64,000 nucleotides of DNA from contig NC_086108.1 of NCBI RefSeq assembly GCF_963921235.1, positions 7,812,001 through 7,876,000 of the forward strand, given 5' to 3'. Every line of letters starts with the position of its first letter. Position 1 is the first letter of the stretch. The stretch is from Mobula hypostoma. Lineage: Eukaryota. The notes under the pieces are model-generated. The model worked only from the letters and a program-made list of their open reading frames with translations. It made no database searches and was not told the origin of the DNA. Both the position numbers and the translations under genes were made by a program. Positions 27,852 to 49,843 of the stretch are shown here, piece by piece.

Positions 27852-29804
27852 TTCCACTGAAGTTGAGTGAGTCTAGAACTATAGGTCATAGGTTAAGGGA
27901 GAAAGGTGTAATATTTAAGGGAAACATGAGCGGGGAATGTCTTTATTCAGTTGGTGGTAAGAGTGTGGAATGCGCTGCTGGTAAAAGTGGTGAATGTTGG
28001 TTTGATTTTAACATTTTGGAGAAATTTGGATAAGCACGTGAGTGCAAAAGTTGAGGTGTATGTCAAAGGGATTAGGCAGAATAACAGTCTGGCAGAAACT
28101 AGATGGGCTGAATGGCCTGCTCCTCTGCTGTCGTGCCCTATACTCTCATTTCCCCAAATTTCCTTAAAATTTTAAAAAAAGGCATTCACGTGGGGTTGTC
28201 TAGGACGGAGTCCCCATGATCCTCTTTGGGCGGACAGTTATAAAGACTCACCACTCCCTGTGGAGGGATTTTTCCTCCCATTTATCTACTAGATGGCCAG
28301 TTCCTTATTTTGACAATGTTTCTGACCCCATTACCCTGGGGAAGATCATGGAGAGTTCTGCATGGAATGTGGGCAAATATTCAACTCTGAAACAGTCAGT
28401 GGTTAAACAGTAGGATCGAGAACATTCAGCTTCCTGGAACACAGCAGTTACTAATAGGGTCAAAATGAAAGGCTTGCTTTTCCACAGGGAGGGTGAGTAA
28501 CACGCCCAGTTTTAGTAATCAGCCACATACTGCTCACGGTGAGAGGCTACCAAAGCTTCCAGCAGGATTTGGACCCACTTGTAAAATGGGTGGAGAAAAG
28601 GCAGGTGGAATTTAATACAGAGAGGTGGAAAGTGTTGCACTTTGGGAGGACAAACTAGGGGAGGATGTACACAGTGAATGGTAGGGCACTGAGGAGTGCG
28701 GTAGAGCCGAGGGATCTGGGAATTGTCATCATCATTATGTGCCCTGTTGTAATGACATGGGCAATCATGGTGACCACAGTCGTTCTTGGCAAATTTTTTC
28801 CACAGAAGTGTTTTGCCAACGCCTTCTTCTGGGCAGTGTCTTTGCAAGTCAGGTGACCCCAGCCATGATCAATTTCAGAGACTGCCCGGCATCAGTGGTT
28901 GCATAACCCAGAGCTTATGATATGTACCGGCTGCTCATACGACCATCCACCACCTGCTCCCGTGGCTTCACGTGACCTTGATCGGTGGGGGGGGGTTGGT
29001 GGTGGTGTGAGATGTGAGGGGCTAAGCAGGTGCTACACCTTGCCTAACGGTAACCTGCAGCCTAGCGGAGGGAAGGAGCAACTTCCACCTCCTTTGGTAG
29101 TGATGTATCTCCACCTCATCTGGGAATACAAATCCAGAATTCCTTGAAAGTGGCATTAGTAGATCGGGTCACACAAAGAGCTTTAGACACATAGGCCTTC
29201 ATAAATCATAGTATTAAGTACAGGACCATGCTAGCAATTGGAAGTGGTGGAGCAGTTTTGATAGCAATATTTAAGAGAAATTACGATAGTTCCATAGATG
29301 GGAGGGATGTGGAGGGCTGTTGCCTGGGTGTGGAGCAACAGGGTTAGACAGAATAAAAGGTTGGCAAGGCCTATACAGGCTGAAGGCCTTTTCTGTGCCG
29401 TAAGTACTCAGACTCTTTGAAGAGGCCGCATATAGTGCATCTAGGAATTTGGGAATTGTGTTGGGGGCTGAATGGTTAAGTGTTAAGTGTTTTTTTTTCT
29501 CCTGATTTTTAGAAGCAGGAGAGCAAAGACGTGTTCCACAAAGTGAACAGATTGTACTGACACAATTCCATAATAAACACAAATACTACTCCCCCATGTA
29601 AAATATTGCATGATCATCTAACCTTAGTCAGCGTCCATATGCAGAGTCCCGTGTCCTTTCCAGAATGTTCCTTCTCCTTACTGAAGACCAGGGACATCCC
29701 CCAGAAAGCCTGTGGTCTCGCTGTAATCCGTCCACAGAAGGTAGCCTCCATTTCCACATCCATGGGGAGTCCAGGAGATAACGAGGCACTTTTCGAGCTG
29801 ATGG

Positions 29805-29930
29805 TCAAAGCTGTAATCTGGAACAACTAAACCGGTTGAGGTACTGCAGAAGGCGCCTTAGGTTACCGAGAAAAATTTCAGCTGACTTCTCGTCGTAGAT
29901 CTCACAACGTTGGCAGCCGGTCGATGCATT
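29805..29930 (-). CDS. IL15L: IL-15-like cytokine, last coding exon (helix D), peptide NASTGCQRCEIYDEKSAEIFLGNLRRLLQYLNRFSCSRLQL*
   Basis: Minus strand reads ctttctgcctctgccttctctgcag|AATGCA..., with TGA at 29805-29807. Carries the C-x-x-CE...FL-x-x-L-x-x-LLQ motif of the IL-2/15/21 family plus a C-terminal Cys as in IL-15L. Confidence 0.88.
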   Translation of the reverse strand, partial: NASTGCQRCEIYDEKSAEIFLGNLRRLLQYLNRFSCSRLQL

Positions 29931-29956
29931 CTGCAGAGAAGGCAGAGGCAGAAAGT

Positions 29957-32900
29957 GTTTACAGTGACAGATTCCTCCACTGGTTTACAGTGACAAAACC
30001 CCTCACTAGTTTACAGTGACAAAATCCCAAACTGGTTTACAGTGACAAAATCCCAAACTGGTTTACAGTGACAAAATCCCCCACTAGTTTACAGTGACAA
30101 AAACCCCTCACTGGTTTACAGTGACTGAATCCTCCACTGGTTTACAGTGACAAAACCCCTCACTAGTTTACAGTGACAAAATCCCAAACTGGTTTACAGT
30201 GACAAAACCCCTCACTAGTTTACAGTGACAAAATCCCAAACTGGTTTACAGTGACAAAACCCCTCACTAGTTTACAGTGACAAAATCCCAAACTGGTTTA
30301 CAGTGACAAAACCCCTCACTAGTTTACAGTGACAAAATCCCAAACTGGTTTACAGTGACAAAACCCCTCACTAGTTTACAGTGACAAAATCCCAAACTGG
30401 TTTACAGTGACAAAACCCCTCACTGGTTTACAGTGACAAAATCCCAAACTGGTTTACAGTGACAAAACCCCTCACTAGTTTACAGTGACAAAATCCCAAA
30501 CTGGTTTACAGTGACAAAACCCCTCACTGGTTTACAGTGACAAAATCCCAAACTGGTTTACAGTGACAAAACCCCTCACTAGTTTACAGTGACAAAACCA
30601 CAAACTGGTTTACAGTGACAAAACCCCTCACTAGTTTACAGTGACAAAATCCCAAACTGGTTTACAGTGACAAAACCCCTCACTAGTTTACAGTGACAAA
30701 ATCCCCCATGGTTTACAGTGACAAAATCCCCCACTAGTTTACAGTGACAAAACCCCTCACTAGTTTACAGTGACAAAATCCCAAACTGGTTTACAGTGAC
30801 AAAATCCCCCACTGGTTTACAGTGACAAAACCCCTCACTAGTTTACAGTGACAAAATCCCAAACTGGTTTACAGTGACAAAACCCCTCACTAGTTTACAG
30901 TGACAAAATCCCAAACTGGTTTACAGTGACAAAACCCCTCACTGGTTTACAGTGACAAAATCCCAAACTGGTTTACAGTGACAAAACCCCTCACTAGTTT
31001 ACAGTGACAAAATCCCAAACTGGTTTACAGTGACAAAACCCCTCACTGGTTTACAGTGACAAAATCCCAAACTGGTTTACAGTGACAAAACCCCTCACTA
31101 GTTTACAGTGACAAAACCCCAAACTGGTTTACAGTGACAAAACCCCTCACTAGTTTACAGTGACAAAATCCCAAACTGGTTTACAGTGACAAAACCCCTC
31201 ACTAGTTTACAGTGACAAAATCCCCCATGGTTTACAGTGACAAAATCCCCCACTAGTTTACAGTGACAAAACCCCTCACTAGTTTACAGTGACAAAATCC
31301 CAAACTGGTTTACAGTGACAAAATCCCCCACTGGTTTACAGTGACAAAACCCCTCACTAGTTTACAGTGACAAAATCCCAAACTGGTTTACAGTGACAAA
31401 ATCCCTCACTGGTTTACAGTGACAAAATCCCCCATGGTTTACAGTGACAAAAATCCCTCACTGGTTTACAGTGACAAAACCTCTCACTGGTTTACAGTGA
31501 CAAAACCCCTCACCAGTTTACAGTGACAAAATCCCTCACTGGTTTACAGTGACAAAAATCCCCCATGGTTTACAGTGACAAAAATCCCTCACTGGTTTAC
31601 AGTGACTGAATCCTCCACTGGTTTACAGTGACAAAACCCCTCACTAGTTTACAGTGACAAAATCCCAAACTGGTTTACAGTGACAAAACCCCTCACTAGT
31701 TTACAGTGACAAAATCCCAAACTGGTTTACAGTGACAAAACCCCTCACTAGTTTACAGTGACAAAATCCCAAACTGGTTTACAGTGACAAAACCCCTCAC
31801 TAGTTTACAGTGACAAAATCCCAAACTGGTTTACAGTGACAAAACCCCTCACTAGTTTACAGTGACAAAATCCCAAACTGGTTTACAGTGACAAAACCCC
31901 TCACTAGTTTACAGTGACAAAATCCCAAACTGGTTTACAGTGACAAAACCCCTCACTGGTTTACCGTGACAAAATCCCAAACTGGTTTACAGTGACAAAA
32001 CCCCTCACTAGTTTACAGTGACAAAACCCCTCACTGGTTTACAGTGACAAAACCCCAAACTGGTTTACAGTGACAAAACCCCTCACTGGTTTACAGTGAC
32101 AAAACCCCAAACTGGTTTACAGTGACAAAATCCCAAACTGGTTTACAGTGACAAAACCCCTCACTAGTTTACAGTGACAAAATCCCCCATGGTTTACAGT
32201 GACAAAACCCCTCACTAGTTTACAGTGACAAAACCCCTCACTGGTTTACAGTGACAAAACCCCAAACTGGTTTACAGTGACAAAACCCCTCACTAGTTTA
32301 CAGTGACAAAATCCCAAACTGGTTTACAGTGACAAAACCCCTCACTAGTTTACAGTGACAAAATCCCAAACTGGTTTACAGTGACAAAACCCCTCACTAG
32401 TTTACAGTGACAAAATCCTCCATGGTTTACAGTGACAAAATCCCCCACTAGTTTACAGTGACAAAACCCCTCACTAGTTTACAGTGACAAAATCCCAAAC
32501 TGGTTTACAGTGACAAAACCCCTCACTAGTTTACAGTGAAAAATCCCAAACTGGTTTACAGTGACAAAATCCCTCACTGGTTTACAGTGACAAAATCCCC
32601 CATGGTTTACAGTGACAAAAATCCCTCACTGGTTTACAGTGACAAAACCTCTCACTGGTTTACAGTGACAAAACCCCTCACCAGTTTACAGTGACAAAAT
32701 CCCTCACTGGTTTACAGTGACAAAAATCCCCCATGGTTTACAGTGACAAAAATCCCTCACTGGTTTACAGTGACAAAATCCCAAACTGGTTTACAGTGAC
32801 AAAACCCCTCACTAGTTTACAGTGACAAAATCCCAAACTGGTTTACAGTGACAAAATCCCAAACTGGTTTACAGTGACAAAACCCCTCACCAGTTTACAG

Positions 32901-34870
32901 TGACAAAATCCCTCACTGGTTTACAGTGACAAAAATCCCCCATGGTTTACAGTGACAAAAATCCCTCACTGGTTTACAGTGACAAAACCCCTCACTAGTT
33001 TACAGTGACAAAATCCCCCACTGGTTTACAGTGACAAAATCCCCCACTGGTTTACAGTGACAAAAATCCCCCATGGTTTACAGTGACAAAAATCCCTCAC
33101 TGGTTTACAGTGGAAAAACCGCTCACTGGTTTACAGTGACAAAAATTCCTCACTGATTCGCAGTGACAAACATCCCCACTGGTTCACAGTGACAAAATAC
33201 CACACTGGTTTACAGTGATAAATGCCCCACCAGTCTACAGTGACTAACAGCCCCACTGGTTTATAGCAGCTAACACTCCCACTGGTGTACAGTGACTAAC
33301 ACTCCCACTGGTTTATAGCAATTAACACTCCCACTGGTTTACAGTGATGGACACCCCCACTGGTTTACAGTGACTAACACTCCCACTGGTTTACAGTGAC
33401 TAACACCCCACTGGTTTACAGCGACTGACACCCCCACTGGTGTACAGTGACTAACACTCCCACTGGTTTACAGTGACTAACACTCCCACTGGTTTATAGC
33501 AACTAACACTCCCACTGGTTTACAGTGACTAACAGACCCACCGGTTTACAGTGATGAATGTCCCCACTGGTTTATGGTGACTGACAACCCCACTAGTTTA
33601 CAGTGACTAACACCCCCACTGGTTTACAATGTCCAACACCCCCACTGGTTTAGCAACTAACACCCCCACTGGTTCACAGCGACTATCACCCCCACTGGTT
33701 TACAGTGACTGACATCACCACTGGTTTACAGTGACTAACACCCCCACTGGTTTACGGTGACTAACACCCCCACTGGTTTACAGCAACTGACACCCCCACT
33801 GGTTCACAGCGACGATCACCTCCACTGGTTTACAGTGACCGCCACCCCCACTGGTTTACAGTGACCAAAAAATCACATTGTTTTACTGTGATTGACACCC
33901 CCACTGGTTTACAGCAACTGTCAACCCCACTGGTTTATAGTGACTGACACCCCCACTGGTTTACAGCGACTGACACCCCCACTGGTGTACAGTGACTAAC
34001 ACTCCCACTGCTTTATAGCAACTATCACCCCCACTGGTTTACAGTGACTGTCACCCCCACTGGTTTACAGTGACTAACACCCCCACTGGTTTACAGTGAC
34101 TGACATCACCACTGGTTTACAGTGACTAACACCCCCACTGGTTTACGGTGACTAACACCCCCACTGGTTTACAGCAACTGACACCCCCACTGGTTCACAG
34201 CGACTATCACCTCCACTGGTTTACAGTGACCGCCACCCCCACTGGTTTACAGTGACAAAAAAATCACATTGTTTTACTGTGATTGACACCCCCACTGGTT
34301 TACAGCAACTGTCAACCCCACTGGTTTATAGTGACTGACACCCCCACTGGTTTACAGCGACTGACACCCCCACTGGTGTACAGTGACTAACACTCCCACT
34401 GGTTTACAGTGACTAACAGACCCACCGGTTTACAGTGATGAATGTCCCCACTGGTTTACGGTGACTGACAACCCCACTAGTTTACAGTGACTAACACCCC
34501 CACTGGTTTACAATGTCCAACACCCCCACTGGTTTAGCAACTAACACCCCCACTGGTTTACAGCAACTGACACCCCCACTGGTTCACAGCGACTATCACC
34601 CCCACTGGTTTACAGTGACTGTCACCCCCACTGGTTTACAGTGACTAACACCCCCACTGGTTTACAGTGACTGACATCACCACTGGTTTACAGCGACGGT
34701 CAACCCCACTGGTTTACAGTAACCATCACCGCCACTGGTTTACAGTGTCCGTCACCCCCACTGGTTTACAGTGACAAAAAATCACACTGTTTTACCGTGA
34801 TTGACACCCCCACTGGTTCACAGTGACTGACACCCCCAATGGTTTACAGTGACTAACTCCCTCACTAGTT
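29957..34870. repeat. 26-bp minisatellite (~190 units), consensus CT(G/A)GTTTACAGTGACAAAA(C/T)CCC(TC/AA)A, in the last IL15L intron
   Basis: Direct tandem periodicity of 26 bp. Homogeneous 52-bp dimer to ~33100, then diverged ...GACTAACACCCCCA units. Confidence 0.97.
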
Positions 34871-34944
34871 TACTCTATCTTATGATGGTTAACATCTCCA
34901 TGAGTTTACACTCATTTTTGCTAGCTTTCAATGGTTAACAATCC

Positions 34945-35200
34945 CGGGCATAGTAGCATAGTGGTTAGCACAGCGCTTTACGATACCAATGACACAGCTT
35001 CAATTCTCCCCATGATGCATGATTTTTCTCCAATTTCCTCCCACAGTCCAAAGATGTACCGGTTAGTAGGTTAATCGGTCATTGTAAATAGTCCTGTGAT
35101 TAGACCAGGGTTAAATCGGGGGTTTGCTGGGTGGCATGGCTTGAAGGACTGAATAGCCCAGTTATGTGCTGTATCTCAATAAACAAACAAATAAATAAAT
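34945..35200 (+). mobile_element. tRNA-derived SINE. Related copies at ~48556-48826 and ~50694-50950
   Basis: tRNA-like head (tagtggttagc...ttcaattc), shared body gtaggttaatcggtcattgtaaa, and aataaac/aaat tail. Confidence 0.65.
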
Positions 35201-35439
35201 AATTGCACCAGATAATGCTCATTCACACTTGTTTACAATGGTTAACACTCTTGCTAGTTTACACAAGAGATTCTGCAGGTGCTGGAAATACTGGAAGAAC
35301 TCAGCAGGTCAGGCAAAGGTATGAGGGGAGTAAGTAGTCAACTTTTCGGGCCGAGACCCTTCATCAGGACTAGTTTACACTAGATAACAATGGTTACCAT
35401 GTCCATGAATTCACACTTCTTTACAATGATTAATATCTT

Positions 35440-36115
35440 CAGTACATCCATCCCAGTGAGCGAGGCCTTGGCGTTGGAGGTGTCTGATTGCTTTCTCGGG
35501 TAGTGCTCTTTGTAGATGTGCACAATGGCAGGGAAGGCTTTCTTTGTCATGACATTTGCTGTATCCGTCACCTGTTGTTGATTTTTCCACTACTTAGGAG
35601 GATTTTCCATTCAAGGGCATTGGTGTTTCCATACCAGGCCATGATGCAGCCAGCCAATGCACTCTCCACTGCACATCTGTAGAAATTTGTCAAAGTTTTA
35701 GACGACATGATGAAACTGCGTAAACTTCTAAGAAGGTAGAGGCACTGTCACGCCTCCTTTGTGATGGCACTTGTGTGCTGGTCCCAGGACAGATCCTCAA
35801 GTACGATAACGCCAAGGAATTTAAAGTTACTGACCCTCTCCTCCCCCAGTCCCATAGCAAACACTTCCTCTTGTAGGAAACAAGCAGCTCCTTGCTTTTC
35901 TGATGTTGAGTGAGAGGAGGTTATTGTGGCACATTTCAGCCAGCTTTTCAATCTCTCCCTCCTACATGCCAATTCATCACCACCCTTGTTTTGGACAATG
36001 ACAGTGCAGTTGTCAGCAAACTTAAATATGGCACCAGAGCTGTACTTAAGCCTCACAGTCATGAGTGTAAAGTGAGGAGAGCAGCCATATGGTGCACCTG
36101 TACTGATCGAAATTG
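35440..36115 (-). mobile_element. Rex1/Babar-type LINE RT fragment
   Basis: Minus translation STGAP...IFKFAD...ERVSNFKFLGV..EDLSWDQH, degenerate. Confidence 0.7.
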
Positions 36116-37069
36116 TGGATTGAAGCTTCAAAGGTTCAGAGAACATTTATTATCAAAGTATAATAACCTAACCCTAACCCTGAGATTTGTCTTCCTGCAG
36201 ACAGCCACAAAACAAAGAAACACCGTGCAAACTTCTCCACGAAAAACATCGAACCCCCAATGCACAAAGAAAGAACCAATCATGCACGTGGCAAAAAGAG
36301 AACAAAAGACACAGAATATAAAAGGTCAAACCACAGAGTCTTTGAAACAGTCATGGAATGTTCAGTTTCAGCTCAGTTCAGTTCAATCTAGCTCTGTATT
36401 GTTCATTGATTGTAAGCCGCAGAGTCAGTCTGCTTTGGTCAAAATTGCCCAAAATAGCTATCAAAAAAGGAGCGACCAGAAACCAAAAACACATCATAAC
36501 GTGAACTACAGCGTCACATCCACAAATCGCGTCGATTAAACCTTGCCCAAGACCTAAGACTTTGGCACCACCACCTGGCAGCATTGAACAAGAGGGAGAG
36601 GAAGAGAGACCGGTCGAATGCAGACACCTTCCTCTGGCAGCAGTAAGCAGGAATTGTTGCCTACCCGTGAAGAGTTTGTCACACAGGAAATGTGCAAATT
36701 GCACACAGTGAGTACCCACCACCAGCATCGAACCCTGGTCTGTGAGGCAGGGGTCAAAGAGCATAAAACGGTCCAGCACCGGGGCAGGCCCTCCAGCTCA
36801 CAGTGTGCTGAACACAGTGCCGAATTAAACTACATCTCTTCCATATCCCTCTTGCGGTTCTATGCAGCAGTGGGTTCCTGCTCTCCGATCCTGCCGAGCA
36901 TTTTTCAATGTCTTCAGGAGCGGCCTGGAAGATGTATGCCTTTGGAGTGGGACCCTGCAGCCCGTTCGGGGTTTATCTTTTGTTCTGTGGATGTCTGTGA
37001 AGAATAAGGATTTCAGGTTGTATACTTTATACACTCTCTGATATGAAATGGAACCATTGAACCATTCAC

Positions 37070-37440
37070 TGCATGTCACTGTCAAGCAGCCTCTTAAACA
37101 CATCGATTGTATTTGCTTCCACAACCTCCTGTGGCAGCCCATTCCAGACAAGCACCAAACTCTGTGTAGATGAAACGTGCCATGTACATCTCCTTTAAAT
37201 CTAACCCCTCTCACCTTAAACGCAAGTCCTCTACTGTTTGATATCTGGATCTTGGGAAAAAGACTCTGGTACTTTATACAACCTTCACCTCTCATAATTC
37301 TATGAACTTCTATCAGGTCTCCGCTCAGTCTTGAACACTAGAGAAAAGAACTCAAGTTTGTCCAATCCCTCCTTATAGCTCACACTCTCCAGTCCAGGCA
37401 GCATCCTGGTGAGCCTCTTCTGCACCCTCTCAAAAGCCTC
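37070..37440 (-). mobile_element. CR1 LINE 3' fragment
   Basis: SRGLAFKVRGVRFKGDVHG-type CR1 C-terminus on the minus strand. Confidence 0.65.
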
Positions 37441-38061
37441 CTTTACAGCCATCATCATCATTATGCGCAGTGTCATATGACATGGGTGATCACAGTCTCT
37501 CCATGATCATGATTGTTCTTGGCAAATTTTTCTACAGAATTGGTTTGCCATTGCCTTTTTCTGGCCAGTGTTTTACAAGACGGGTGACCTCAGCCATTAT
37601 CAATACTCTTCAGAGATTGTCTGCCTGGCATCAGTGGTCACATAACCAGGACTTGTGATCTGCACCGGCTGTTCATACGACCATCCACCACCTGCTCTCA
37701 TGTCTTCACGTGACCCTGATCGGAGGCTAAGCAGGCACCACACCTTGTCCAAGGGTGATCTGCAGGTTAGCAGAGGGAAGGTGTACCTCCAACCCGCCAC
37801 CCATTTTTTAAACTTAAATTATTTAAATTAAAAATTAAATGATTTCTTTTTTGTATATATTTATTGTTATTTACAGTTCTTATTATTATGAATTATAAAG
37901 TACCACTACAGTAAAAAAACATATTTCATGACATATGCCAGTGATATTAAACCTGACTCTGATTCTGAAGAGGAACAGTGGGGTTGTTAAGAAATCTGAT
38001 CGCAGAGAGGAAGATTTGTTGAGTGTGTGTCATTAGGCTCCTGTACCTCCTCCCTGATGGT

Positions 38062-38537
38062 CTGTCTGTCTGTCTGGGTACCATATCCGATGCAGACGTT
38101 GGTAACCATGGTTTTCCATGTAGATCTATCCTTCGTTTTTTGGATGACTTCCATTTCCTCGATGTGTAGCCACCTGGCTAAGCTTTTGATGTACATAAGC
38201 CGAGGTCCTCCTCTAGATTTGCCCCCCTCAATCTTTCCAGAGAGTATGAGTTTTTCTAGTTCATCTTTCCACATGATATGTCCTAGGAATCTGAGTTGTC
38301 TTTCTCTTATTGTTGGTATGAGTGATCAAACTGCTTGGGCTCTTCTGAGAACTTCTTCATTTGATGTGTGTGTGGTCCATGATATTTTTAACATTCTCCT
38401 GTAGAACCATAATTCAGCTGCTTCTAGTCTCTTTTCCATTGCTGGAGAAACGGTCCAGCATTCACTTCCATAAGTTAGGATAGAATAAATGTGGCACTGC
38501 AGTGTTCTGTTTTTAGTGTGCGTGCTCATCTTTCTGT
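38062..38537 (-). mobile_element. 5'-truncated RTE-clade LINE inserted into a Rex1-type fragment
   Basis: Minus translation ILTYGSECWT...RLEAAELWFYRRMLKISW...GKIEGGKSRGGP; (CAGA)n tail; 8-bp TSD ctgatggt (38054-38061 / 38538-38545). Confidence 0.85.
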
Positions 38538-39345
38538 CTGATGGTAGTATTGAGAAAAGGGCATTGTCCTGGATGGTGACGGTCTTTAGTGATAGGTTTG
38601 CTAGTAGAAACCTGAATATTAATTTATTCTATCTCACCATGAACGCTGCCTGACTTGCTAAGTTTTTCCAGCAGCTTCTGTCTTCTCTGCTGCAAGCGTT
38701 TGGGAGACCAGTCCCAGCCAGTATACCTGGCTGAGTCCATGTTCTTTGAGGGGGTGGCCATGGGATCTTCAATATGAGCTGCAGGGGTTGTGAACACACT
38801 CAGCTCCATCATGGGCACCAGCCTCCCTGGCAACCTGGGGCCTTCAATGTCCACCCCCACCTTTCCTATTAGCTGTTCCTCTGAATCACCTTGGATAGTT
38901 TATAAAAATGATTCTGACGTTTGGTGTCAGGATCTGAATTTCAGCTCATCACTCACCAGGTAATGAGCTGAAATTCACTTCCTATTGCTTTGAAACCACA
39001 AATTACACTGCATTTAATGCTAGAGTAACTTTTCCCATCCAATTGTGCATGAAAGCTATGTTCTATTTATGTATTTACTGTAAGATCCTGATGTTTTTGA
39101 AATCCAAAGGTTCTTTGGAAGTCTGGATAAGGCATAAAATGTGTTTGCTGATGATCGCCCTCAACCATCAGGCTCTTGAACCAAAGGGGACTGCAAGGGG
39201 AATGGCCAATCAGGAATCAGAATCAGAATCATTTAATACCACTGGGAATTGTTGTGAAATTTATTAACCTAGCAGCAATGGTGCAATGCAATACATGAGA
39301 ACAGAGAGAAAAGGAAAACTGTGAATTACAGTACATACATACACA

Positions 39346-39928
39346 CAGTCACATGCAAAAGTTTGAGCACCCCTGTTCAAAATTTCTGTTACTGTGAATA
39401 GCCAAGCGAGTAAAAGATGACCCGATTTCCTAAAAGCATAAAGTTAAAGATGACACATTTCTTTAATATTTTAAGCAAGATTACTTTTTTTATTTCCACC
39501 TTTTACAGTTTCAAAATAACAAAAAAGGAAAAGCACCTGAAACAAAAGTTTGGGCACCCTGCATGGTCAGTACTTAGTAACACCCCCTTTGGCAAGTATC
39601 ACCACTTGTAAATGCTCTTTGTAGCCAGCTAAGGGTCTTTCAATTCTTGTTTGGGGAATTTTCACCCATTCTTCCTTGCAAAAGGCTTCTAGTTCTGTGA
39701 GATTCTTGGGCCATCTTGCATGCACTTCTCTTTTGAGGTCTATCCACAGATTCTTGATGATGTTTAGGTCAGGGGACAGTGAGGGCCATGGCAAAACCTT
39801 CAGTTTGCACCTCTTGAGGTAGTCCATTGTGGATTTTGAGGTGTGTTTAGGATTATTATCCTGTTGTAGAAGCTATCCATTTCTCATCGTCAGCTTTTTT
39901 ACAGATGGTATGATGTTTGCTTCCAGAA
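39346..39928 (-). mobile_element. Tc1/mariner transposon 3' end
   Basis: Transposase motif WPSLSPDLNIIKNLW...GGVTKY; terminal cagtcacatgcaaaagtttgagcaccc with an inner direct repeat caaaagtttgggcaccc. Confidence 0.85.
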
Positions 39929-40718
39929 CCCTGGAGTCTGGACTTGGAACTCGGAACATCGGAGCCTGGACTTGGAACTCGGAACATTGGAGCCTGGACT
40001 TAGAACTCGGAACACTGGAACACAGAGCTGGGACTCTTCCTAGACACAGGGCACAGAACACAGAACACGAAAAGACAGTTCCCAACTCAGGGTAGCAGCA
40101 AATGGCTGGACCTACCCAGCGGAGACGAGGACACGAAGAGACAGTTCCCAACTCAGGGTAGCAGCTAACGGCTGGACCTACCCAGCAGAGGCGAGGACAC
40201 AAAGAGACAGTTCCCAACTCAAGGTAGCGGCAAACGGCCGGACCTACCCAGAGCAGACGAGGACACAAAGAGACAAAACACAATGATAGACAATTCTTTT
40301 ATCCTGGCACGAAGTGGCTCCACGTAGCGGTGAGATCTCGACTCGGCCCCAGAACTACAGACAGCAGCTCTAGACTCACTCTGGCAGGTTAACTTGACGG
40401 ACTCGCTCTGGCGAGATAGCATAGCGGGCTCGCTCAGGCACAGTAACTTGACAGGCTGGATCTGGCGAGGAGAGGCGACTTACTGGCACTCGCTTCGGGG
40501 AGGAGACTTGACTTGCTCTGGCAAGGTGACTTGCTCGCACGTGCTTCGGTGACGTGAGGTGACGTCAGGTGATGGTCTAGCCCCAAGCAGCTGTAAGCCC
40601 GACACTATATACTGACCGTTCAGCTGAGAATCAAGTGCCTTTAATTACAGAGCCCAAGAAACACGGGGAAACAATGAATTAAAGGAAAGCAAGGAGTCAA
40701 TGGTCCCGGTCGTGACAG
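39929..40718 (-). mobile_element. Probable LTR-retrotransposon LTR fragment with internal ~60-bp and ~22-bp tandem repeats
   Basis: Minus strand starts TGTCAC; TATA-like tatata near 40606; tandem cccaactcagggtagc units at 40081, 40147 and 40213. A short continuation follows the L1 at 44214-44244. Confidence 0.45.
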
Positions 40719-40735
40719 AAAGGAAACTTAAAGGG

Positions 40736-43700
40736 TCGGTATTTACTAACAATCAAAGATCCCCTCTTTTTCATTTATTCCATGGTACTAGGCAGGGTTG
40801 TCCTCTTAGTCCACTACTATTTGATATTGCTTTGGAACCGCTAGCTATTGCTATTCGTGACTCCCCTAATATATTTGGCATTACCCGTGGAAATGAGACT
40901 CATAAATTATCACTATATGCAGATGATCTACTATTATATATTTCTAACTCAGGGAAATCTATTCCGGCTGTATTAACTTTGCTTGCTCAGTTTAGTAGTT
41001 TTTCTGGTTATAAACTGAACCTAGGTAAGAGTAAACTTTCCATTAAATATGCAGGTCCCCACTTATAGAAATTCTCCATTTAGAGTGACTACTGACTATT
41101 TTACTTATCTAGGAGTTAAAATTACTAAGAGACATAAGGATTTATTCAATTTCAACCTTTTACCATTAATTAATCAGGTTAAACAACTGATTACTAAGCG
41201 GTCCCCATTGTCTCTATCATTGATTGGCCGAATCAATGCTATTAACATGATTATTTTACCTAAATTTTTATATTTATTTCAAACGATACCAATTTTTATT
41301 CCTAAATCCTTTTTTGATACTATCGATTCTAAAATTTCCTCTTATATATGGCAAAATAAAAATCCAAGATTAAGTAAAAAATACTTACAGAAATCCAAGA
41401 AAGAGGGTGGTTTGGCATTGCCTAACCTAAGATTTTATTATTGGGCAATTAATATTCTATATTTAATATTTTGGACGCAAGATTGGAATATAACTCTAAG
41501 CCCATATTGGGTAAACCTTGAAGGCCACTCTGTACAAGGGTTTTCTTTAGCTTCCATTTCAGGAACTTCACTTCCTTTTGTACTATCTAAATTGAATAAA
41601 CAAATGTTTAACACTATAGTTAAACATACATTGTGAATGTGGTTTCAATTTCTTAAATTTTTTGGCCTGAATGAATTGATGTTATCAAGTCCTATTATAT
41701 CTAATTTCTTTTTTCAACCCTCGGTTATGGACCAAGCCTTTTTGATATGGAAAACGAAAGGTGTAATATGTTTTCGTGACTTATTTCTGGATAACTGTTT
41801 TATGTCTTTTGAGCAGTTATCTAAGAAATTTGATTTGCCAAGATCCCATTTTTTTAGATACTTACAAATAAGAAATTTTTTAAATACTATTTTGCCTACC
41901 TTTCCGTCTTCATATCCTATTGATATTATTGATAAAATTTTAGGTTTAAATCCTTTTCAGAAGGGATTAATAGCAATTATCGATGATATAACTATGAAAT
42001 TACAGCCAGGTATATCTGATAAGATTAAAAATGAATGGGAAAGGGAACTTCAACTTTGTCTACCTATAGAGAAATGGGATAAAATTTTTCAATTAGTTAG
42101 TACTTCCTCTATATGTGCTAAACATACATTAATACAATTTAACCATATAACAATTACAGCACAGAAACAGGCCATCTCGGCCCTTCTAGTCCGTGCCGAA
42201 CACTTACCCTATCCTAGTCCCACTGACCTGCACTCAGCCCATAACCCTCCATTCCTTTCCTGTCCATATATCTATCCAATTTAACTTTAAACGACAATAT
42301 CGAACCTGCCTCAACCACTTCTGCTGGAAGCTCGTTCCACACAGCTACCACTCTCTGAGTGAAGAAGTTCCCCCTCATGTTACCCCTAAACTTTTTTCCT
42401 CTAACTCTCAACCCATGTCCTCTTGTTTAAATCTTCCCAACTCTCAATGGAAAAAGTCTAACCACGTCAACTCTATCTATCCCCCTCATAATTTTAAACA
42501 CCTCTATCAAGTCCCCCCTCAACCTTCTACGCTCCAAAGAATAAAGACCTAACTTGTTCAACCTTTCTCTGTAATTTAGGAGATGAAACCCAGGCAACAT
42601 TTTAGTAAACCTCTGTACTCTCTCAAATTTATTGACATCTTTCCTATAATTCGGTGACCAGAACTGTACACAATACTCCAGATTTGGCCTTACCAATGCC
42701 TTATACAACTTCAACATTACATCCCAACTCCTATACTCAATGCTCTGATTAATAAAGGCCAGCAAACCAAAAGCTTTCTTCACCACCCTATCCACATGAG
42801 ATTCCATCTTCAGGGAACTATGTACCATTATTCCTAGATCCCTCTGTTCTACTGCATTCTTCAATGCCCTACCATTTACCATGTATGTCCTATTTTGATT
42901 AGTCCTACCAAAATGTAGCACCTCACATTTTTCAGCATTAAACTCCATCTGCCATCTCTCAGCCCACTCTTCTAACTGTCCTAAATCTCTCTGCAAGTTT
43001 TGAAAACCTACCTCATCATCCACAACACCACCTATCTTAGTATCATCTGCATACTTACTAATCCAATTTACCACCCCATCATCCAGATCATTAATATATA
43101 TGACAAACAACATTGGACCCAGTACAGATCCCTGAGGCACACCACTACACACCGTCCTCCAATCTGACACACAGTTATCCACCACTACTCTCTGGCATCT
43201 CCCATCTAGCCACTGCTGAATCCATTTTACTACTTCCATATTAATGCCTAATGATTGAACCTTCCTAACTAACCTTCCACGTGGAACCTTGTCAAAGGCC
43301 TTACTGAAGTCCATATAGATAACATTCACCGTTTTACCCTCGTCAACTTTCCTAGTAATCATCAAAAAATTTAATAGATTTAAAGTAGTACATAGAGCTC
43401 ATATGTCCAAAGATAAATTAGATCGTTTTTATTCCCATATAAACCCTATTTGTGATAGATGTCACTCTGAGGTGGCTTCTTTAACTCATATGTTTTGGTC
43501 CTGTCCTCTTTTGGAAAAATATTGGAAAGATATTTTTGATACTATTTCAACAGTTCTATGTTTTGATTTAAAACCCCATCCCATTATGGCAATTTTTAGA
43601 TTGCCAATGGTAGAACATAGATCTTTGTCTTCTTCAGTCTGTCGGATGATAGCATTTGTTACTTTAATGGCTAGAAGATCTATTTTGTTGAACTGGAAGG

Positions 43701-44196
43701 AAATCAATCCTCCTACTACATTCCAATGGTTTTCTCAAACTATATTAAGTCCAAATTTAGAGAAAATTAGAAGTGATATTTTTGATCCTTCGGTTAAATT
43801 TGAAGAAACTTGGAGACCTTTTATGCAACATTTTCATATGATGTAATCTGACCTTTCTGAATCATTTTTAACTTAAATTATATGAATAGAGGAGCGGAGT
43901 TGATGACATTACTGAATGTGTCTGATTCAAGATATTGGTCTAGCCCTGTTTTGTTCTGTTTCTTTTTGGGTTTTTTTTTCGTTTTCTTTTGGGGATTTTT
44001 CTTTGTTCATATATATTTCTTTTTATTTCTTTTTTTATGACTAATTTCATTATGATTTTGGAAGTCTAATATACCTATGTTACTTAAAATCCTTTTTGTA
44101 TATGCTTATTAAGATTATTCCAATCTCTTTGTATCAACATTGTTACTATATTTATAATTTTGAAAATTAATAAAAAGATTTAAAAAGAAAAAAAGA
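40736..44196 (+). mobile_element. 5'-truncated L1-clade LINE (ORF2 RT to Cys-rich end, frameshifted), split by a CR1
   Basis: GTRQGCPLSPLLF, LYADD, FTYLGV, GGLALPN, CDRC...HMFWSC; AATAAA plus A-rich tail; 17-bp TSD aaaggaaa(c/t)ttaaaggg at 40719-40735 / 44197-44213. Confidence 0.92.
42143..43377 (-). mobile_element. Young 5'-truncated CR1 LINE nested in the L1
   Basis: 312-aa open RT ORF (DFSKAFDKV, GVPQGSVLGP, YADDTK, LEYCVQFWSP) plus a frameshifted C-terminus. atttaa duplication at the junctions. Removing it restores L1 IQF-KVVHRAH. Confidence 0.93.
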
Positions 44197-44774
44197 AAAG
44201 GAAATTTAAAGGGAACCAGGGAATAACCGATTGGGACTGTGACAGTACTATGTCTGCCCCTGTCGGGAAAGCCTGGAATAGACCTGAGTCCTAACAGGCA
44301 TAACTTCACTTGCCCCATTATTGAAATGTTCCCACAACCAATGGACTCCCTTTCCAGGACTCTTCATCACATCTCAATATTTATTGCTTATTTATTAATT
44401 ATTCCAATTAATTATTATTTCTTATTTTTTGTATTTCCACAGTTTGCTGCTTTCTGCACACTGGTTGAACGCCCAAGTAAGTGTGGTCTTTCATTGATCT
44501 GTAATGGTTATTATTCTTTAGATTTATTGAGTATTCCCGCAAGAAAATGAATCTCATGGTTCTATATGCTGACATACATGTACTTTGATCATAAATTTAC
44601 TTTGAGCTTTGACCGCCCAGGGTATGCTTCTTCTTGTTGTTGTCATCGAGAAGGAGGTACAGGGACCTCAGCACCCACATCACCACATTCAGGAACCGTT
44701 ATTACCCTCAGCCATCAGGCTCTTGAACCAGTGGGGATAACTTGATTCAGTAAGCCCACAGGAAAATGAATCTC

Positions 44775-45090
44775 AAGGTGGGGAAGTCTAGGACCAAAGG
44801 ACACAGCCTCAGAATAGAGTGGCATCCTTTTAGAATGGAAATGAAGAGGAATTTCTTTAGCCAGAGGGTGGTGAATCTGTGGAATTCATTGCCATGGGTG
44901 TTGTGGAGGCCAAGTGATTGGATATGTTTAAGGCAGAGGTTGATAGGTTCTTGATTAGTCAGGGCATGAAGGGATACGGGGAGAAGGCAGGAGATTGGAG
45001 CTGAGAAGGAAAATAGATCAGCCTTGATGAAATGGCGGAGCAGACTTGATGGGCTGATGGGCCTAATTCTGCTCCTATAGCTTATGGTCA
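44775..45090 (+). mobile_element. CR1 LINE 3' end
   Basis: SRTKGHSLRI...RNFFSQRVVNLWNSLP followed by the typical ...gcctaattctgctccta tail. Confidence 0.8.
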
Positions 45091-46566
45091 ATCCAAATTC
45101 CTTCGAGGTACAGCACAGCAACAGGCTCTTCCTGTCAAAAGGGCTCCAGTAACACCCAACTAACCTTGTAATCTATACGTCTTTGGACCTGTCCAGTATA
45201 ACACTTTGATGTGGCATATGTGGAGATTCGCAGGTTCAAAGATTTAAAGAATTAAAGATTCAAATATTCAAGGAGTCAAAGGCATTTATTATACAAGTAT
45301 GTACACAGAATACAGCTCACTAGTTCATCCTCCCATAGGCACCACAAAACAAAGAAACACCATGGAACCCATTCAAGAGAACATCAGAAGCTCCATGTGT
45401 GGAAGAGATTTTCCAAATGAATTCCTTTCCTGTGATTCCTGTACATCCTCTATACCTCTCACAGGATCAGGTCCAAAACCAACATGTAAATGAAGTAGAC
45501 GAGGAGCGAGAAGTTCAGGAGTGACGGAAACTTGGCTAAAAATGTAGGCTCCATTCCATAATCAGAGGAACTTAGTGAACTTGTTGTAATCAGCTATTGC
45601 ATTGAAATGTTGTTTATGTTCCAACCATGAGGTGTTACATGTTAACCAAACTGAGCATTACACACACAAGAAAGCAGCATGCATCATCAAGGACCCAAGA
45701 GGAGCCCCAGATCCCACAGCACCAGGGTCAGGGACAGTTCAACCATCTGGCTCCTGAACTGGCGTGGATAACTTCACTCACTTCAACACAGAACTGGTTC
45801 CACAACCAACAGACACACTTTCAAGGACTCTATAACTCATATCCTCAAAATTATTTATTCACTTATTTAGATATAATTTCTTTTTGTATTTACACAGTTT
45901 GTATTCTTTTGCATATTGGTTGTTTGTCAGTCTTTGTGCATAGTTTTTCCAGTGATTCTATTGTATTTCTTTGTTCTACTGTGAATCCTACAAAAAAACG
46001 AAACTCAGACCAGGATTTGGTGACAAGTATACGTACTTCGATAATAAATTTAATTTGAATTTTTTGACCTTTGAGACAGATCTCTTGGACTTGAATTTCA
46101 ATCCCAGCCCCTTGTCCACGTGAAACAATGTCACGTTGTCCAGATATATCCCAGATTGAGTCATTAATGTAGAACCATTTAGATCACATAAGACACTGTG
46201 ATCACTGACAGCACAGAGAACATCACAGCCCTGCGTCCCACGATGTTGTGCCAACCTTTCTATTTATTTTATTTATTGAGATCAGTGCGGAACAGGTCAT
46301 TGTGGCCCTTCGAGCTATACTGTCCAGCAATCCCTGTTTTAACCCTAGCCTAATCATGAGACAATTTACAATGACTACTTAACCTACCAACCAGTATGCC
46401 TCTGGTGATATATATGTACTTTGATAATAAATTGCCTTTAAACTTTTACAAAGTTTTAAAAATGTAACTCCCTGTATTTGTTTCCAAGTCACTCAACCCC
46501 GTGAAGTCTCTGCTGTGGTGACACCAAAGACTTAACAGATGTTTGCGGAAGAATAGTGAGACTTAC

Positions 46567-46707
46567 CAGGTGTAAAGTGAAGTACTCGAGTCTGTCACTT
46601 AATTTGGAAATGAGCTGAGACACATTTTGCTTCCAAACTCCATCAAATTCAAAGCCCAAGACAAAAAGTTCACTCTTAAAACATCTCAGCGTCTCCTTGT
46701 AACAAAA
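46567..46707 (-). CDS. IL15L: IL-15-like cytokine, internal coding exon (helices B-C; family exon 3), peptide FCYKETLRCFKSELFVLGFEFDGVWKQNVSQLISKLSDRLEYFTLHL
   Basis: Minus strand reads tttgttttgcacag|TTTTGT...CACCTG|gtaagt. 141 nt = 47 codons, phase 0/0. C-x-x-ETL-x-CF-x-x-EL-x-V-(L/I)-GFE is the IL-15L/IL-15 helix B signature. Confidence 0.88.
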
Positions 46708-47249
46708 CTGTGCAAAACAAATATCACAGTGTTTGTATTAGGACAAAAAAATACAGCGGGTAAGCATAGTATCTACATTCAATGGCCACTTTAGGTATAC
46801 CCGCTTGTTAATCGGTCTTTCGGTGGTTTCATTTAATATCAGAGAATGTTTACAGTATACAACCTGAAATTCTTACTCTTCACAGACATCCACATAACAG
46901 AAGAAAATCCCCAAAGAATGAATGACACAGAATGTCAGAACCCCAGTGACCCCTCCCCACTCCCACACACAAGCAGAGGCAAAAGCACTAACCCTCGCCC
47001 TTTCCCTCGCTTTGCTGCAGCCGAAACATCAACCCCCCTCCACTCACCACGCAAGCAATAGCAAAGCCCCAGAGACCATGACCTAGAGTCCATCAAAAAT
47101 TACTGACCATCTCAGACAGACTCTCTCTCTCTCGCAAGGGAGGGAGAGAGAGAGATACTGTTCCTGCAACAGACAAGAGGGGAGACCAACAGCTTGCTGT
47201 TTAGATGTTGCAACTTGCAGCCTTGTTCATTCGAGTTCCCCCGAAACTA

Positions 47250-47545
47250 ATCAGCCAATCATGTGGCAGCAACTCAATGCATAAAAGCGTACAGACATGG
47301 TCAAGAGGTTCAGTTGTTGCTCAGACCAAACATCAGAATGGGGAAGGAATATGATCTAAGTAACTTTGACTGTGGGATGATTGTTGGTGCCAGACTGGGT
47401 GCTTTGAGCATCTCAGAAACTGCCGATCTCCTGAGATTTTCACACAGAACAGACTCTCGAGTTTACAGAGAATGATGTGATAATCAAAAAAAATCATCCA
47501 GTGAGCAGCAGTTCTGTGGGCTAAATTGCCTTGTTAATGAGGGAA
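47250..47545 (+). mobile_element. Tc1-like transposase N-terminal (HTH) fragment; left end near 46774, interrupted
   Basis: DLSNFDCGMIVGAR...SISETADLLRFS...SRVYRE. Confidence 0.75.
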
Positions 47546-47639
47546 CACACACAAAATGCTGGAGGAACTCAGCAGACTAGGTAGCATCTATGGAAAAGAG
47601 TGCAGTCGACGTTTCGGGCTGAGACCCTTCAACGGGACC

Positions 47640-48905
47640 TGTAATAGTTGATGAATTATTCTTGTTCATTTAAATAATTAATTAAGGGTTATATGTAGAA
47701 ATATGTTAATTGCACACGTCATCCCGCCACCACGTGATATGTGTGTGCCTCAATTAAAGCAAAGATGAAGTTTCACCCGTAATCTTGGACTCCCGTATCT
47801 TTATTTGAATTAATTGAACGTTTTAAAGTGCAAAACATAACATCGGCAGCGAGGTATTTTTAAAACAAACCCAAGACGGCTACTGACCTGTCAAAGAGGA
47901 GCGAGTCATTTGAACTAAAATAAAACGCTGCGAGGAACGGTCATTAAAAGAAACAGCCTAACATGTGCAACGACATAGAGTTCAAAAGAAAGGCAGTGAA
48001 CGGACGAATTCAGGGTTCATAAAGAGTGAGAACTGGGTGAGAATAATCACTAAAAAAATCATAAATGGCTAGCTACATTGAAGAGATTACATAACAACCA
48101 ATTGGTTCATGTATACTGAACTATTGGAACAATATCTTGAAGCAAATGAAATAACTAATGAGAAGCGAGTGCCAATTTTACTGAGTTCATTGGGCTTAAA
48201 GGCATAGGGTTTGCTTCAAACCTGCAGAAGTGAGCTCTCCTGATACTGTCAAAGTAAATCATGGACATTTGGAACCAAAGCCGTTGTTGATTGCAGAACA
48301 CGTTAGGTTTCTTAAGTGGAATCAAAAAGAAAGTGAGTCCATTTCAGCGTACATGGCCGATTTGAAGAGGTTGTCTGAGCATTGTCAGTTTGGTGATAGG
48401 ATTAATAATACACTAAGGGATTGTTTATTTTGTGGAATATTACAAGAAAGCATTCAAAATGGCTCCTAGGTGAAGCACAGCTTACATTTACAAGAGCAGT
48501 GGAAATCACTGTTTCAATGGAAACCATAGACAGAGACGCAACTGAGTTGCAGTCTGAAGGGCAGTATGGTAGCAAAATGCTTTACAGTACAGGCAACCCA
48601 GGTTCAATGCCTTTTAAGGAGTTTGTACGTTCGCCCTGTGACTGTGTGGGTTTCCTCTGGGTGCTCCGGTTTCCTCCCACAGTTCATAGACATACCAGTT
48701 AGTAAATTAATTGGGCATTGTACATTGACGCATGATTTGGCTAGGATTAAATCAGGGGATTGCTGAAGGGCACAGCTTGAAGGACCAGAAGGGTCTACTC
48801 TGCATTGTTCCTCAATAAATAAACAATGAAAGTGAGGGTGAATAAAATTTAAGCATTGAAACAGAAACTGGCCTGGCCAAACAAATAGTGTTACCGTTGT
48901 AATGT
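47640..48905 (+). mobile_element. Gypsy LTR-retrotransposon remnant: 5' LTR (47640-47842), PBS-like site, degenerate gag; SINE inserted at ~48556-48826
   Basis: TG...CA LTR followed by tcggcagcgagg; gag from the ATG at 48065 (LEQYLEANEI, PKPLLIAE..RF, LKRLSEHCQFG, start of CYRC knuckle). Confidence 0.75.
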
Positions 48906-49167
48906 GGGTACTGAGTATAGAACATCAGAGCACTGTGCAGGCCTTTTGATCCACTATGCTGTGCCAAGTCTTTTAATGTAATCTATGATCAATATACCTT
49001 TTCCTCCCACAGAGCCCTCTATTTTTCTTTTGTCCCCATGTGCATACCGATCTCTGTGCAAAAAACTTACACCTGACATCCCCCTCACCCATACTTTGCT
49101 CAAATTACCTTAAAGTTATGCCCTCTGCTATTAGTCATTTCTGCCCTGGTTGTCATCTTGATCTAGA

Positions 49168-49715
49168 CTACTGTGCAAAAGTTTTAGGCACATATATACA
49201 TTATATATATGTGTGTGTGTGTATATATATAACTAGTATGTGTATTGTATATAGTATGAGGAGCATGGAGCGGAGAGCAAATTGTAAATCTAGTGGGAGC
49301 AAACGATGTTGGGAATGGTGAGGGTGGAGTGCCGCTGGAGGGGTGCGGGACAGGTGGCAGAGAGGGAGTGCCGGGGTGAGGGGTGGTGCGGGTATAGTCA
49401 TACCAGACACTCTGAGACACCAGGAAAGGTTATTTGATTCCAAACAATTGGTTTATTGATCATTGCAGAATGTCTCTCTGGTGCTTCCTGCTGCCTCCCC
49501 TCTCCCTTCCCCTTTTCCCAACCATGATTTCCCTCTCCCTGCCCCTCCCACTCTCAGTCCACAATACAGACCCATATCAGAATCAGGTTTATCATCACTC
49601 ACATAGGTCATGAAGTTTGTTTTTTTTTACAGTGCAATACATAAAATTACTACAGTACTGTGCAAAAGTCTTAGGCACCCATGTCAAATGCCTAAGACAT
49701 TTGCGTAGTACTGTA
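49168..49715 (+). mobile_element. Non-autonomous Tc1-like/MITE element; second copy in opposite orientation at ~56388-56840
   Basis: Repeated and inverted tactgtgcaaaagt(c/t)ttaggcac termini; shared body between the two copies. Confidence 0.6.
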
Positions 49716-49792
49716 TGTTATACACAAACCATTCCTAAAGTCACAAAATCTTTTCTTTTGATACATGTAACGGTAATAAACCAATGACTTAC

Positions 49793-49843
49793 TTCTATAA
49801 AATTCAGATCGGGGCAGTAGAGACTGATGTCACCTCCTCCTCC
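49793..49843 (-). CDS. IL15L: IL-15-like cytokine, internal coding exon (A-B loop; family exon 2), peptide GGGGDISLYCPDLNFIE
   Basis: Minus strand reads atctctttcag|GGAGGA...ATAGAA|gtaagt. 51 nt = 17 codons, phase 0/0. DISLYCPD matches the family D-x-x-LY-T-P motif. Confidence 0.85.

Follow-up and report, generated by a model that had tools for sequence, protein, structure and literature searches.

The window analysed here is a 64,000-nucleotide stretch of the genome of the ray Mobula hypostoma (NCBI RefSeq assembly GCF_963921235.1, contig NC_086108.1, positions 7,812,001 to 7,876,000, or G000:C50:7812001-7876000 of the 3.48-Gb assembly). It carries on its minus strand coding exons 2-4 of a four-exon gene for a small cytokine. 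The gene is real, intact and already known; it encodes a cartilaginous-fish cytokine of the group formed by interleukin (IL) 2, IL-15, IL-15-like (IL-15L) and IL-21, which fold as short-chain four-helix bundles, and it is most probably the ray orthologue of IL-15L (il15l).

Four coding exons and a spliced 3' untranslated region

An earlier note on the window had proposed three exons with canonical splice sites and phase-0 junctions, separated by introns of 3085 and 16636 nt. All of these coordinates hold on the minus strand, and exons 2-4 do splice into one open frame of 105 amino acids (aa), as proposed there; this frame, however, is not the whole protein, since a 39-aa exon 1 outside the window had been missed. 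The features of the gene, in the order of transcription and in window coordinates, are:

66783-66899 (window-equivalent; C50:7878783-7878899, L004:1501-1617), minus strand: exon 1, ATG...GTG followed by a gtaagg donor, 39 aa
49844-64000, minus strand: in-window part of intron 1; the full intron is 16939 nt and reaches window-equivalent 66782
49793-49843, minus strand: coding exon 2 (family consensus exon 2), tttcag GGAGGA...ATAGAA gtaagt, 17 aa, with the LYCP form of the LxTP motif
46708-49792, minus strand: intron 2, 3085 nt from the exon borders
46567-46707, minus strand: coding exon 3, tgcacag TTTTGT...CACCTG gtaagt, 47 aa, helices B and C, with the C-x6-CF-x2-EL-x-V-x3-E motif
29931-46566, minus strand: intron 3, 16636 nt from the exon borders
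29623-29930, minus strand: exon 4, 308 nt, acceptor ctctgcag, 41 aa (helix D, CxxCE) and stop, then 182 nt of 3' untranslated region (UTR) to a GT donor
29805-29930, minus strand: coding part of exon 4, AATGCA...CTTTGA, with the TGA stop at 29805-29807

Exon 1 was located by a genome search with protein P0003 of Mobula birostris, whose residues 1-39 match it; it lies about 2.8 kb past the window end and codes for the leader and helix A. All exon junctions are phase 0 with AG/GT sites, and the four coding exons (39+17+47+41 = 144 aa), joined by coordinates, give a coding sequence of 435 nt with a single terminal stop. From ATG to stop the gene spans 37.1 kb, not the 20 kb or so first assigned to it. 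Its product is identical to P0003, a protein of the same length (144 aa) and the same exon content, at 141 of 144 positions, the differences being at positions 8, 78 and 102. Exon 2 is identical to residues 40-56 of P0003; exon 3, which is single-copy in the genome at E<=0.001 in a genome search, matches this protein with 96% identity and the hidden Markov model (HMM) of the family with E 4.9e-9. Just upstream of exon 1, outside the window, there is by eye an out-of-frame ATG (L004:1628-1714, minus strand) that opens a 28-codon frame closing 10 nt short of the start codon of il15l; a ttttcag directly before this ATG, likewise noticed by eye, suggests a further 5' non-coding exon. Cattle and rabbit IL-15L also have upstream out-of-frame ATGs in the published account.

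For the 3' end, none of the five runs listed for window 27900-29930 is on record as RNA, the label being a guess. Contigs of four small runs of one study, likewise labelled by guess, were aligned to window positions 27900-29976. Each of the four has one contig (1197, 483, 1081 and 595 letters) that agrees with 29623-29931 letter for letter and continues on both sides, for 63-668 letters, into sequence unlike the genomic stretch, which in this comparison reaches 45 bases beyond 29931 and 1.7 kb beyond 29623. The upper limit of the match is the predicted acceptor of exon 4, one extra base (29931) being explicable by chance, and the lower limit, 29623, is followed by GT at 29622-29621. This pattern agrees with splicing on both sides of exon 4 and with an internal position of this exon; the joins of exon 4 to exon 3 and of exon 3 to exon 2 we infer. 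The transcript goes on past the last coding exon, which extends to 29623 and there meets a GT donor. There is at least one further, non-coding 3' exon, with a 3'-UTR intron that starts 182 nt past the stop. The 3'-side contig extensions (111-668 letters, two runs giving 668 and 663) map outside 27900-29976, and the letters downstream may belong to this gene or to read-through into a neighbour.

A stop codon 182 nt upstream of a splice donor could, in our view, expose the transcript to nonsense-mediated decay, and the short exons are scattered over 37 kb of repeats, as they might be in a dead pseudogene or in a frame left open by chance. Such an origin is exceedingly unlikely. The frame stays open through four exons, all with canonical splice sites, up to its one terminal stop, all hallmark residues of the family are kept, the protein is 98% identical to a RefSeq protein of a distinct species and 70% identical to that of Hemitrygon, and the contigs fit splicing at the borders of exon 4. 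The frame is far beyond chance because of the 141/144 identity to the RefSeq protein and because contig matches end at the 29930 acceptor in all four runs.

Window positions 28600-29230, downstream of exon 4, hold a repeat with a summed contig depth of up to ~18,000, 90-95% likeness in runs X1-X4 and many internal joints, probably an abundant interspersed element.

Family membership, fold and cysteines

Membership in the IL-2/IL-15/IL-15L/IL-21 family, proposed before from motifs and exon phases, is borne out by a Pfam match, the exon layout, the hallmark residues and the fold. Pfam searches and structure prediction were run on P0003 (98% identical, 141/144) as a stand-in for the spliced protein of M. 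hypostoma. P0003 matches the Pfam family IL15 (PF02372) with 35.4 bits, at a gathering cut-off of 28.5, over profile positions 5-125 of 128, and protein P0005 of Hemitrygon akajei matches it with 40.7 bits. Searching exon by exon is too weak for this family: with exon 4 alone IL15 is the best Pfam match, over profile positions 98-125 of 128 and short of the cut-off (E 0.048); exon 3 by itself matches nothing in Pfam; and the Pfam IL15 model run genome-wide gave one match only, E 6.1 on C5, and none at this gene.

A profile built from P0003 and P0005 retrieved 57 proteins at E<=0.001 from 1.84 billion representative sequences. Our alignment consists of 51 of these 57 with P0003, P0005 and P0064 (54 rows); P0004, P0008, P0009, P0034, P0035 and P0061 were left out (isoform, aberrant ends, insert, near-duplicate, fusion). 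Residues L47, C58, C65, E69, C109, C112 and F123 are invariant in it. Compared as a profile with the PDB, the alignment scored 4.8e-20 for IL-15, 3.7e-17 for grass carp IL-2, 3.7e-10 for IL-21 and 0.017 for human IL-2.

The AlphaFold model of P0003 (predicted local distance difference test, pLDDT, 89.2; predicted template-modelling score, pTM, 0.80) has helices at residues 26-39, 59-76, 82-100 and 120-141 and two short strands. The top fold matches in the PDB are IL-15, fish IL-2 and IL-21. Of the nine Foldseek matches at E<=0.001, eight are chains of IL-15 and the ninth is grass carp IL-2. First among them is mouse IL-15 bound to its alpha receptor (2psm_A), with a template-modelling (TM) score of 0.85 on the target, a root-mean-square deviation of 2.0 and 25% identity.

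Hallmarks of the family are two conserved cysteine pairs, the LxTP motif, F44, D/E89 and Q108 (PMC3894449). The ray protein keeps C58, C65, C109, C112, F66, E113 and Q132, as we map them onto the numbering of that paper. Tyr48, Glu69 and Glu76, the putative contact residues for the alpha chain of the IL-15 receptor (IL-15R-alpha), are present in the sequence. In the motif L47-Y48-C49-P50 a cysteine replaces the Thr of LxTP; this Cys49, whose codon is at window positions 49811-49813, occurs in 4 elasmobranch rows of the alignment and in none of the 50 other rows. The ray protein has an odd number of cysteines after the leader, seven, and Cys49, which lies beside the Tyr that contacts IL-15R-alpha, is apparently unpaired. 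It is a doubtful speculation that Cys49 might form an intermolecular disulfide, as a covalent complex of cytokine and receptor alpha chain or as a covalent dimer, and, separately, that the 3'-UTR intron could put the transcript under the control of nonsense-mediated decay. The cited parts of the papers report no such covalent complex or dimer for the IL-15 family.

Orthology to IL-15L

IL-15L, which the earlier note had favoured on motifs, remains the best orthology call because of linkage to a PLEKHG2-type gene, the presence of IL-15 as a gene of its own elsewhere in this genome, an extra cysteine pair, and nearest named relatives called 'interleukin 15, like'; the tree, in contrast, does not resolve it. 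As for the relatives, a protein search with exon 3 returned three proteins, P0003 of M. birostris and two isoforms of H. akajei (70%), which all have the NCBI name 'interleukin 15, like'. One of these, P0005, is 144 aa long and 70% identical to the Mobula protein; isoform X2, unlike the ray gene, is without the exon-2 residues. Twenty of the 57 profile matches were looked up by name, and the ten best of them after the query's own cluster comprise four chondrichthyan proteins, five bony-fish proteins named 'interleukin 15, like' and one unnamed. Closest are 'interleukin-15-like' of Chiloscyllium, an 'uncharacterized' protein of Cetorhinus, a 'hypothetical' one of Scyliorhinus torazame and 'Interleukin 15' (UniRef) of Callorhinchus; next come 'interleukin 15, like' of Amia, Melanotaenia, Cololabis, Scomber, Polyodon and Osmerus. 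Weaker matches include IL-15 of Latimeria and Liasis, and reptile 'Interleukin' entries with long leaders. The UniRef entry V9LKT2 (P0010) may be the sequence published as elephant-shark IL-15L or the one published as IL-15.

IL-15 proper was considered and rejected, as the ray has its own IL-15 gene at a ZNF330-linked locus on C9 and the IL-15 clade (100/98) excludes the window gene. Latimeria IL-15 gave no significant match in the genome, and its best match, at E 0.15, proved on reading to be exon 3 of ray IL-15 (C9:137635389-137635544; L032:1501-1656, minus strand), with an AG acceptor, a GT donor and the C-x6-CF-x2-EL motif. Exon 4 of the same gene lies ~10 kb downstream (C9:137.62-137.64 Mb; L041), and seven pieces of ZNF330/NOA36, a gene that we take to flank IL-15 in other vertebrates, are found at C9:137.79-137.83 Mb, ~157 kb away. 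Exon 4 of ray IL-15 is without the conserved Gln that il15l keeps at position 132. The tree was computed from 57 rows and 149 columns, without validated IL-2 or IL-21 rows; several of the row labels are our own, that is, 'tetrapod IL-15L' (turtle, Rhineura, alligator), 'IL-15' (Sphenodon, Pelusios) and 'IL-2-like' (Cirrhinus). It places the ray C9 gene within the IL-15 clade (support 100/98), and the window gene outside it, in a chondrichthyan clade (92/80).

The place of IL-15L in fish, reptiles and mammals is between PLEKHG2 on one side and SUPT5H on the other (PMC3894449). An alligator model under the name PLEKHG2 (P0061) has an IL-15L-like sequence at its end, and its PLEKHG2 part, a PH-domain exon, matches C50:8178049-8178135 on the minus strand with 90% identity, against 50% and 64% at two other loci. 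A count by hand of the 120 proteins listed for this exon gave about 56 with the name PLEKHG2, some 20 with PLEKHG3(-like) and 3 with PLEKHG1(-like). The M. birostris protein P0123 (1631 aa), encoded on the same contig as il15l of that species, a contig close in length to C50 (117.8 against 118.1 Mb), is a PLEKHG2-type protein, co-linear with caecilian PLEKHG2 in the DH-PH domains (68%), a middle block and a C-terminal motif. Its last 84 aa are found at C50:8136306-8136557 on the minus strand; a distance of 257,407 bases separates the end of the PLEKHG2-type gene from the il15l start codon downstream of it, both genes being on the same strand, in the order and orientation of the alligator fusion. 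A tblastn search with P0123 gave no match in the 264 kb of C50 scanned around the window (C50:7712001-7976000); the 160 kb between this region and the PLEKHG2-type gene (C50:7,976,000-8,136,306) were not read. A sturgeon 'SPT5' model (P0181) carries RhoGEF/PH domains, and the fusions P0061 and P0181 echo a PLEKHG2-IL15L-SUPT5H neighbourhood.

The extra N-/C-terminal cysteine pair is described as 'rather specific' for IL-15L (PMC3894449). A putative pair of this kind, C24/C139, is present in the ray sequence; cysteines align at these two positions in 42 and 35 of the 54 rows, and none of the three reptile IL-15 rows has the pair.

Several observations weigh against the identification as ray il15l. 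The four runs are called RNA by guess, and the joins to exons 3 and 2 are judged from where the contig matches stop. Grass carp IL-2 (7cjn/7d9m) is about as similar to P0003 as mammalian IL-15. The C24/C139 pair is also found in Latimeria IL-15 and is not exclusive to IL-15L. Names of elasmobranch PLEKHG homologues are inconsistent in NCBI and UniRef (G1-like, G3-like, uncharacterized). Just one side of the published synteny holds: SUPT5H, which the earlier note had expected in the vicinity along with PLEKHG2, is not a neighbour, the only Spt5-NGN match in the genome being at C40:2813179-2813346, and C21 carries the only RPS16 copy that is split in three co-linear pieces. Support is weak at the deep nodes of the tree (47/13, 76/62, 78/50), which, with no validated IL-2 or IL-21 rows, leaves IL-15L orthology unsettled. 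Finally, the approximately unbiased (AU) test does not reject a tree in which the chondrichthyan and IL-15 clades are joined (p 0.583), the constrained tree being 3.43 log-likelihood units better.

Some of these points would suit a gene of the IL-15 family with its own history in cartilaginous fish, such as an old duplicate of IL-15, that has been named il15l by similarity. The AU test allows this, and so does the free tree, in which the chondrichthyan clade lies weakly (76/62) closer to IL-15 and tetrapod IL-15L than to IL-15L of ray-finned fish; the absence of SUPT5H next to the gene and the UniRef name 'Interleukin 15' of the elephant-shark member point the same way. We nevertheless regard a separate lineage as unlikely, in view of the PLEKHG2-type gene 257 kb upstream in the same orientation (by simple arithmetic, a 600-kb neighbourhood is ~2 in 10,000 of the 3.48-Gb genome), the placement of start codon and short leader in family exon 1, which IL-15L shares, the N-/C-terminal cysteine pair, and the best matches outside chondrichthyans, which are all 'interleukin 15, like'.

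An orthologue of IL-2 or IL-21 is very improbable. P0003 is matched by grass carp IL-2 no worse than by mouse IL-15 (E 0.0002 for both), grass carp IL-2 ranks third in the fold search, and the tree contained no validated sequence of IL-2 or IL-21; the family profile, however, prefers IL-15 over IL-21 and human IL-2 by the scores given above, and the single IL-2-like row (P0058, our label) falls outside the clade of the window gene. Tyr48, Glu69 and Glu76 are kept, residues that most IL-21 lack (PMC3894449). A six-frame search of C50:7712001-7976000 with the family HMM found at E<1 only this gene's own exons and no exon of a tandem partner, the search covering neighbours up to 100 kb away. The linked gene is of PLEKHG2 type, and no other host gene was seen in the 264 kb scanned, where transposable-element families were the only ones recognised among the longest open reading frames of the 100-kb flanks (80 downstream, 60 upstream), a survey that short host exons would escape.

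Repeats, and ray IL-15L among its relatives

The surroundings of the exons were at first described as transposon debris. This is correct for intron 3, where fragments of reverse transcriptase of long interspersed elements (LINEs) lie at 40628-43846 (Pfam RVT_1 and zf-RVT on 3 of 14 open reading frames scanned); it leaves out two large tandem arrays detected by Tandem Repeats Finder (TRF). One of them, also in intron 3, is a 26-bp minisatellite at 29957-34873 (4.9 kb, 189 copies, 84% matches) that comes within 27 nt of the exon-4 acceptor on the upstream side; the other is a 2.3-kb (GT)n-rich array in intron 1 (60021-62322). Outside the gene, 9 kb downstream of exon 4, TRF reports a degenerate (CT)n tract of 20.7 kb (window 4-20725, 77% matches, ~10,400 copies), which is almost purely pyrimidine on the plus strand, with GC skew and AT skew near -1.

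Taken as il15l, the ray gene resembles IL-15L of bony vertebrates (trout IL-15La/b, cattle) in the short leader within family exon 1 (PMC7658486, PMC3894449), in the two cysteine pairs and the N-/C-terminal pair, in the hallmarks LY-x-P, CF, E, V-x3-E, CxxCE, F and Q of the same sources, and in the PLEKHG2-type gene upstream. It differs from them in overall sequence, with only 25-34% identity, in the lack of SUPT5H as downstream neighbour and in Cys for the Thr of LxTP. With IL-15 (mouse 2psm_A, human 4gs7_A and the ray gene on C9) it shares the Pfam family, the best structural match and, at the sequence level, the residues expected to contact the receptor alpha chain; the differences are the locus, ray IL-15 being beside ZNF330 on C9, the position of the window gene outside the IL-15 clade, and the absence from ray il15l of the upstream leader-peptide exons described for IL-15 (PMC7658486).

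By analogy with trout and cattle IL-15L (PMC7658486, PMC3894449), the protein would be secreted after removal of a leader of ~20 residues and would bind IL-15R-alpha, at its sushi domain, by way of a conserved patch of Tyr48, Glu69 and Glu76. According to the same two sources, it may depend on the IL-15R-alpha chain for stability, be presented mainly in trans, and engage a receptor of the IL-2R-beta/gamma-c type, leading to activation of STAT5. Trout IL-15L favours type-2 (IL-4/13) responses (PMC7658486).

The gene had been thought hidden and probably under-annotated. NCBI, however, already annotates both the 98%-identical gene of M. birostris and the gene of H. akajei as 'interleukin 15, like'. 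IL-15L of cartilaginous fish has been in print since 2014 (Dijkstra 2014, cited in PMC7658486), and a shark sequence grouping with IL-15L has been reported (PMC6238376). With the annotation in the sister species and the published IL-15L of cartilaginous fish, the present finding leaves existing knowledge unchanged. In the portion of the literature on IL-15L of cartilaginous fish and sharks that we covered, no paper on a ray IL-15L was found. Possibly new are the LYCP cysteine of the four elasmobranch rows, the 3'-UTR intron and the synteny lost on the SUPT5H side.

Within the IL-2/IL-15 group, IL-15L is a third and ancient member, lost in humans and mice, that drives markers of type-2 immunity in trout (PMC7658486). 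The ray has retained the PLEKHG2 side of the old synteny and not the SUPT5H side, and its complete gene is one more cartilaginous-fish data point for the evolution of the cytokine trio and its shared alpha receptor.

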